DNA of 63,930 nucleotides, the filler included, from Squatina squatina (lineage: Eukaryota): assembly GCA_031763465.1 (NCBI GenBank). It is 4 parts of 3 records of this genome, joined end to end, with 100 filler letters (N's around TTAATTAATTAA, not from the genome) between each part and the next. Parts side by side here need not be neighbours in the genome. Positions count along the whole stretch, not along the records: positions 28,250 to 50,816 come from JARFOE010000115.1; 3 more parts are not named here. One strand, given 5' to 3'. The notes beneath the pieces were generated by a model that worked only from the letters and a program-made list of their open reading frames with translations, made no database searches and was not told the DNA's origin. The first letter of the stretch is position 1. Every line of letters begins with the position of its first letter. The translations under genes were made by a program, and so were the position numbers. This document shows, piece after piece, positions 45,988 to 47,598 of the stretch.

Positions 45988-46350
45988 TATTTATTAAAAA
46001 ATAATTTGGCAGTGGAAGCAACACCACAAAACTTAGCGCGTCTAGAAGGTCAAAAAAAGCGTGCACAAAAAGACGCGGCAGAAGAATTAAAAGAAGCGCA
46101 ACAGTTGAAAGCGGTACTGGATGAGACGACTGTTGAAATGAAAGCGAAGTCTGGTGAAGGTGGCCGTTTATTCGGTTCTATCACGACGAAACAAATTGCA
46201 GAAGCATTGAAAAAACAAAAAGATATTAAAGTGGACCGTCGTAAAATGGAATTGCCTGATGCGATTCGTGCTTTAGGTTATACGAATGTGCCAATTAAAT
46301 TACATCCAGAAGTAACAGCGACGATGAAAGTGCATGTTACAGAAGAATAG
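45988..46350 (+). CDS. rplI: Bacterial 50S ribosomal protein L9, 5'-truncated (about 28 N-terminal residues absent)
   Basis: [12 protein letters not shown]...[21 protein letters not shown]...[28 protein letters not shown] is Firmicutes bL9. The first seven residues of the ORF-track call (MVSVLKC) come from non-bacterial flank. Confidence 0.96.
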
Positions 46351-46352
46351 AC

Positions 46353-46362
46353 AGAGGAGTGA
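46353..46362 (+). promoter_or_regulatory. Shine-Dalgarno site of dnaB
   Basis: AGAGGAGTGA within the 18-bp intergenic spacer, upstream of the ATG at 46369. Confidence 0.85.
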
Positions 46363-46368
46363 CGGTTC

Positions 46369-47598
46369 ATGGATCCATTAGATCGTATTCCACCCCATAA
46401 CAATGAAGCGGAACAATCGATACTCGGTGCGATTTTTTTGGAGCCGGAAACGTTAATTACAGCATCTGAAATCATTATGCCGGTTGACTTCTACAAAGTA
46501 GCCCATCAAAAAATATTCGAAACGATGTTAGTGTTAAACGATCGTGGAGAACCGATTGATCTCGTTACTTTAACTGAAGAATTAAAAGCGGCGAATGAGT
46601 TAGAAAACGTAGGCGGGCTCAGTTATTTAGGAGAGCTCGCCTCTACTGTTCCTACCGCGGCCAATATCGATTATTACGCGCGTATTGTGGAAGAGAAATC
46701 ATTGCTTCGCAAGTTGATTCGTGTCGCGACGACGATTATCGACGATGGGTATACACGAGAAGACGAAGTAGAAGAAGTGCTCGCAGAAGCAGAACGTAAA
46801 ATGATGGAAGTATCAAGTCGGAAAAATGCAGGAGATTTTAAACCGATTGCGGACGTTCTGGTTGACACGTTCGAAAATATTGAACGATTGCATAACCAAA
46901 AAGGTGATGTGACAGGAATTCCGACAGGATTTACTGATTTAGACCGCATTACAGCAGGATTTCAGCGCAATGATTTAATTATCGTAGCAGCTCGTCCTTC
47001 TGTCGGGAAAACAGCCTTTGCACTAAACGTTGCTCAAAACGTTGCGACAAAAACAGAAGAAAATGTGGCGATTTTCAGTTTGGAAATGGGAGCCGATCAA
47101 CTCGTCATGCGTATGCTTTGTGCGGAAGGGAATATCGATGCACAAGCTTTACGTACAGGAGATTTAGAAGATGAAGATTGGAAAAAGCTTTCCCTCGCTA
47201 TCGGGACGCTATCAAATGCTGGAATTTTCATCGACGATTCTCCTGGAGTGCGCGTCAACGAAATTCGTTCGAAATGTCGTCGGTTAAAACAAGAACATGG
47301 CCTCGGAATGATTGTCATCGACTATTTGCAACTCATTATGGGGAGCGGTCGTTCAGGTGAAAACAGACAACAAGAAGTTTCGGAGATTTCACGTTCTTTA
47401 AAGGCGTTAGCACGTGAATTAGAAGTGCCAGTCATCGCATTATCACAGTTATCACGTGGCGTCGAGCAACGGCAAGATAAGCGCCCGATGATGTCCGACC
47501 TTCGGGAGTCTGGGAGTATTGAGCAAGACGCAGACATCGTCAGCTTCTTATATCGTGAAGATTACTACGATAAAGAAACAGAGAATAAAAATTTAATG
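46369..47598 (+). CDS. dnaB: Bacterial replicative DNA helicase (DnaB family; DnaC in Bacillus nomenclature), 3'-truncated after about 410 codons
   Basis: N-terminal PPHNNEAEQSILGA, Walker A AARPSVGKT, FSLEM, IDYLQL, LSQLSR and SDLRESGSIEQDAD. Homology stops at ...DKETENKNL(M), before the expected EIIIAKQRNGP. The rplI-helicase order is the normal Bacillales arrangement. Confidence 0.98.

Follow-up and report, generated by a model that had tools for sequence, protein, structure and literature searches.

A Savagea serpentis-like chromosome fragment inside a Squatina squatina contig, probably contaminant DNA that assembly software fused to the host sequence

A block of bacterial DNA interrupts an otherwise host-like contig in the Squatina squatina assembly GCA_031763465.1. 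Judged by its alignments, the block is evidently a chromosome fragment of a living Savagea serpentis-like bacterium, and it is almost certainly an artefact of one kind or another and not a real genomic feature. The best explanation is probably that contaminant Savagea DNA was joined to host sequence by the assembly software. The initial annotation of this DNA had favoured contaminant DNA in a chimeric assembly, and that view is supported by the near-identity of the block to its donor and by the bacterial continuation of the block in contigs of three public sequencing runs (X1, X15 and X16). The fragment is without function in the animal. The window analysed is a stretch of 63,930 nt made up of four parts of the assembly; all positions given below count along this window, and the coordinates of the features are collected in Table 1.

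Gene content and donor of the bacterial block

The contig harboring the block extends without gaps from 43503 to 47631 between N runs at 43403-43502 and 47632-47731, in agreement with the initial annotation. The same annotation placed an undecayed rplI-helicase fragment at 45988-47598; the block itself stands, but its exact limits had to be corrected on the basis of the donor alignment (Table 1). Other features ascribed to the block were confirmed: the frames are open and contain neither stops nor frameshifts, a Shine-Dalgarno-like site precedes the helicase gene, both genes are cut mid-CDS, and CpG dinucleotides are abundant (observed/expected ratio 1.59, 114 CpG, versus 0.36 for the left part of the contig and 0.37 for the remainder of the window). 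The break in rplI falls within codon 29 of 148 and the gene retains its stop codon (46348-46350); the remnant matches TIGR00158 (L9) with an E value of 1.2e-36. The frame of the helicase gene, presumably dnaC in Bacillus naming, matches NF004384 at 705 bits and TIGR00665 (DnaB) at 570 bits.

Table 1. Coordinates of the bacterial block, its genes and junctions, and the neighboring host-like features
Feature	Position	Strand	Remarks
Decayed LINE ORF2-like fragment	44190..44810	+	Many stops; same contig as block
Start of inverted-repeat-bounded host element	45824..45949	+	Aligns to 62315-62429; just left of junction
Bacterial block, Savagea serpentis-like chromosome fragment	45990..47597	+	rplI 3' part, intergenic region, helicase 5' part; 1,608 bp
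A/T-only run, left junction	45990..46007		18 nt; ranks third in length among A/T-only runs over 80 kb of the donor contig
rplI (bL9) remnant	45990..46350	+	Codons 30-148 and stop codon; 86 nt absent at the 5' end
Shine-Dalgarno-like GAGGAG before helicase start	46354..46359	+	Seen in the sequence
Replicative DnaB-family helicase gene	46369..47597	+	ATG at 46369; 409 of 450 codons kept
A/T-only run, right junction	47584..47597		14 nt
Non-Savagea tail	47598..47631		34 nt; host-like composition

The earlier guess that the donor belongs to the Planococcaceae proved correct, and a genome scan, DNA alignment and the run contigs narrow it to Savagea serpentis or a conspecific strain. S. serpentis SN6 (NZ_JADKPV010000008.1) was the best of the 80 loci kept in the bacterial genome scan, with 100% identity at the protein level over 408 residues, the next locus reaching 84%. 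At the DNA level SN6 is identical to the block at 1,604 of 1,608 nt (99.75%) without gaps, and the next-best genome reaches 74.3%. All 4 differences are synonymous third-position changes, and 2 of them are common to SN6 and run X16, which indicates strain variation as the source of the differences. The SN6 locus has the same gene order and the same spacer as the block. Unlike the block, however, it contains both genes whole, preceded by a 658-aa ORF and followed by ORFs that we take to be peptidase-like and response-regulator-like, all of which are missing here.

Part of the contig was present in 20 of the 24 public sequencing runs listed, each time at 0.33-0.37 of its words, which corresponds to the size of the bacterial part. 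None of the 24 runs listed, among which there was no host run, contained half of the contig or the host and bacterial parts together. The named holders of the block DNA include soil, insect, gut and food-fermentation metagenomes. The comparison at contig level covered 4 of the 24 runs, namely X1 (a soil metagenome), X10, X15 and X16. Contigs of the unrelated runs X1 and X15 displayed 0 differences over the block (100% identity), and those of X16 displayed 2, both corresponding to the SN6 allele. The contigs of these three runs continue past 45990 and 47597 as normal Savagea sequence, and none of them covers the host part. Run X10 was rejected as a holder of the block: its share of 0.34 was discounted when closer comparison revealed no cover of the block. 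Similarly, 34-nt matches to positions 43901-43934 in X15 and X16 had low depth and were taken as chance. The absence of differences to contigs of present-day runs makes the block identical to a strain alive today.

The absence of CpG decay had been put forward as an argument for contamination. Decay is indeed absent, and no sign of the amelioration or decay looked for in horizontal transfer, such as CpG loss, stops, introns or TE insertions, was found (0 differences to living strains, in addition to the high CpG ratio). Taken alone this argument is weak, as it only bounds the age of the block: the absence of changes over 1,608 bp corresponds to a limit of about 2.7 million generations (3/1608/7e-10) at the mutation rate of 7e-10 per base per generation that is reported for the epaulette shark (PMC10587355). 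Perfect identity to present-day strains, while others differ at 2-4 sites, is the stronger point. An old, domesticated transfer was ruled out by the absence of divergence from living strains.

When the window (1-63930, all four stretches) was compared with SN6 and two relatives, the block was the sole match and no second Savagea fragment was found. A second bacterial gene was not found either in a Pfam scan of 115 of the 172 stop-to-stop frames in the window, which left aside frames shorter than 75 aa, frames starting in the tandem repeat of the first 2.3 kb and 5 frames inside the block, and which gave 1 weak match below the cut-off. Savagea is counted among the key organisms of the cadaver decomposer network and is also present on swine, cattle and mice (PMC10914610), and S. 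serpentis is mentioned in further carrion literature.

Host flanks and state of the assembly

The left part of the contig had been annotated as CR1 and Harbinger sequence. A LINE ORF2-like stretch and a member of an inverted-repeat family are present there; the family names are our assumption, and the description of the contig as shark-like depends on these repeat types. The former is presumably of the CR1 type, and protein searches based on it yielded no usable candidate among 114 and, elsewhere, only eukaryotic clusters. The latter, which starts at about 45824, has a family copy of about 660 bp at 62307-62966 that is bounded by 16-nt terminal inverted repeats and, if its ends are moved one base in, by a 3-bp CTG on each side. 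We take both copies to be Harbinger-like MITEs, which the 3-bp duplication would fit. The left junction is located about 170 nt into this inverted-repeat element, whose far end was not seen in 47732-55269, beyond the gap, when a diverged paralog served for comparison. Right after the gap beyond the block, at 47732-48230, there is a broken LINE reverse-transcriptase fragment with a weak RVT_1 match (E 0.03).

On the right side, the block ends 34 nt short of the contig end. The tail that fills this space scores +2.6 bits in a host-versus-donor comparison, a value reached by 0 of 47 block 34-mers, and it matches neither the 3 genomes compared, where as many as 3 mismatches were allowed, nor 83 loci, nor any metagenome or viral contig. 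A seeming similarity between the tail and the expected continuation of the repeat copy at 62.4 kb was not significant (P 0.2-0.56, the paralog being diverged). Together with the missing far end of the element, this may mildly favour the view that the two flanks come from two unrelated host loci.

The assembly is highly fragmented in the window, which consists of 43 pieces with a median of 1,041 bp that are mostly set apart by 100 N. In three of the gaps, 44 N on each side flank a 12-nt linker (12807-12818, 28194-28205 and 50861-50872). This linker carries stops in all six frames and is an artificial contig-concatenation linker remaining in the assembly; linkers of this kind are reported to join contigs into pseudomolecules (PMC3500351). 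At another site a 15-nt word is common to contigs adjoining across a 100-N gap (16190-16215 and 16316-16350), which suggests that the contig ends overlap or are duplicated and that gap sizes are arbitrary. Repeats of other kinds were also observed: a long tandem array with a 33-bp unit and higher-order repeats (e.g. a 396-bp recurrence) occupies the window from 1 to about 2300, minisatellites are located at 35311-35723 (32-bp unit) and 12559-12714 (26-bp unit), and two related hairpins with arms of 31-36 nt and loops of 8-16 nt lie side by side at 61162-61249 and 61361-61430. A search of the window against Rfam gave 0 matches.

Junctions and origin of the fusion

The initial annotation considered the breakpoints in the two genes to be random. 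This is not borne out by the junctions, as both ends of the block sit on A/T-only runs. These two runs, located at the outer edges, are the only ones of at least 11 nt in the entire block, and at least 14 A/T at both ends was obtained for 11 of 5,000,000 random donor blocks; this test was devised post hoc, with the ends already known, but the margin is large. In host-likeness, scored by a Markov model built from the host part, the 21-mers at the two ends lie within the uppermost 0.34% and 0.14% of those of the donor, and their chance of being present in the host as well would be about 75-100 times the median. When the focal contig was left out of the model they ranked 9 and 3 of 1,588, with one interior 21-mer scoring slightly higher. 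For an assumed host size of 4 Gb about 6 donor 21-mers per kb are expected in the host by chance, so that shared words would be available for joining. This compositional test indicates that the junctions are likely located at words shared with the host, the host copies being predicted ones. The position of the A/T runs just inside the block edges fits host sequence sharing those runs, and their presence at both ends supports a short-overlap join more than random breakpoints would.

The sequence of events that we consider probable is as follows. A Savagea serpentis-like bacterium likely contaminated the sequenced tissue, for which a partly decomposed specimen would be a plausible source. The host would carry the same short AT-rich words, of about 14-21 nt, at both junction points, and a small-k de Bruijn step, a short-overlap merge or gap-filling could then have led out of the host sequence into the bacterium and from there into host sequence again, the two joins probably being located at two unrelated host loci. 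Speculatively, the tail of 34 nt and a shared 21-mer would add up to 55, which would fit a multi-k assembler run with k values from 21 to 55, probably default settings; the contig would then end as soon as a 55-mer consists of host sequence only. Against a join by software is the presence of non-bacterial sequence without Ns on both sides, so that two joins are needed, and so is the lack of a second Savagea fragment elsewhere in the window. An overlap of the size of k between contig ends was not found in the window, where 0 of 42 adjacent pairs had ends overlapping by more than 4 nt.

The evidence on the donor would be the same if the contaminant had been joined at the bench, through chimeric library molecules that were formed by ligation, or by template switching at AT-rich microhomologies during amplification, and then entered a low-coverage assembly. 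Template switching would likewise be expected to favour short shared AT-rich words, and in an assembly as fragmented as this one single molecules could seed joins. This route would require, however, either two chimeric molecules formed independently of one another, with joins 1.6 kb apart and each at the most AT-rich spot, or one amplified molecule, and plain ligation would presumably not favour A/T runs. We regard a chimera made at the bench as unlikely, though less so than a natural insertion. The latter would be a real and very recent Savagea integration, either germline or somatic, in which microhomology-mediated end joining placed the fragment at an AT-rich site within a transposon. Such a capture of 1.6 kb of bacterial DNA by a vertebrate, via unusually long A/T microhomologies of 14-18 nt and before any decay, seems highly improbable. 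A real integration is in line with the gap-free contig and the host-like sequence on both sides, and at slow shark mutation rates (PMC10587355) identity to living strains is compatible with a recent event. Moreover, microhomology of at least 1 bp is reported for 51.9% of numt junctions (PMC9630118), and real numts are reported to be enriched next to A+T oligomers and to have A+T-rich flanks (PMC3467031). Several observations argue against it. The block is identical to present-day strains and ends 34 nt from a contig end in a fragmented assembly, and none of the 24 runs listed, which include no host run, joins the two parts. The donor is described as a free-living decomposer (PMC10914610), for which we know of no route to the germline. 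No target-site duplication was found, the longest word common to both flanks being 4 nt, and there are no mobile-element ends at the block of the kind that a mobile-element-mediated insertion would leave. Delivery by a phage or mobile element was likewise rejected, as there was no phage match and the sole plasmid match was 80% over 199 nt of rplI. Similar internal bacterial segments in reference genomes are reported to have proved contamination (PMC7218494). Finally, a join by software is favoured over natural insertion because the putative shared words of 14-21 nt exceed the microhomology of 1-7 bp reported for numts (PMC2567098).

Significance and comparison with known cases

As an artefact the block would have curation value only: positions 45990-47597 should be removed, and a screen of the assembly for DNA of Savagea and other decomposers is advisable. 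It would also be a clean example of a contaminant that mimics an internal insertion because host sequence borders it left and right, and an A/T-only run at each end would provide a cheap warning sign for contaminant joins. If the integration were true, it would be a rare, datable and still pristine bacterium-to-vertebrate DNA transfer with readable junctions.

Several contamination cases resemble the one described here. About 4.2 kb of E. coli DNA in chromosome X of C. elegans, and about 18 kb of Acidithiobacillus DNA at the end of the human alt scaffold NT_187580, are reported as contamination (PMC7218494). The TRIM/FIX class of FCS-GX comprises inter-kingdom chimeras, which are described as often being located at contig ends (PMC10898089), and the tardigrade case is a further precedent (PMC8862208). 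The E. coli, Acidithiobacillus and FCS-GX cases share with the block a near-perfect match to a living bacterium and a fusion to host sequence without a gap. Those cases were settled by reads or by other assemblies, whereas the block is judged from sequence comparison. Unlike them, it bears a clear A/T-run signature at each of its ends, and its donor is a decomposer and not a laboratory organism. Integrants derived from mitochondria (numts) and from Wolbachia also resemble the block in being unmodified foreign fragments that are cut mid-gene and have AT-rich junctions. Their donors are intracellular, however, and numt microhomologies are shorter than the words that the host would share with the block.
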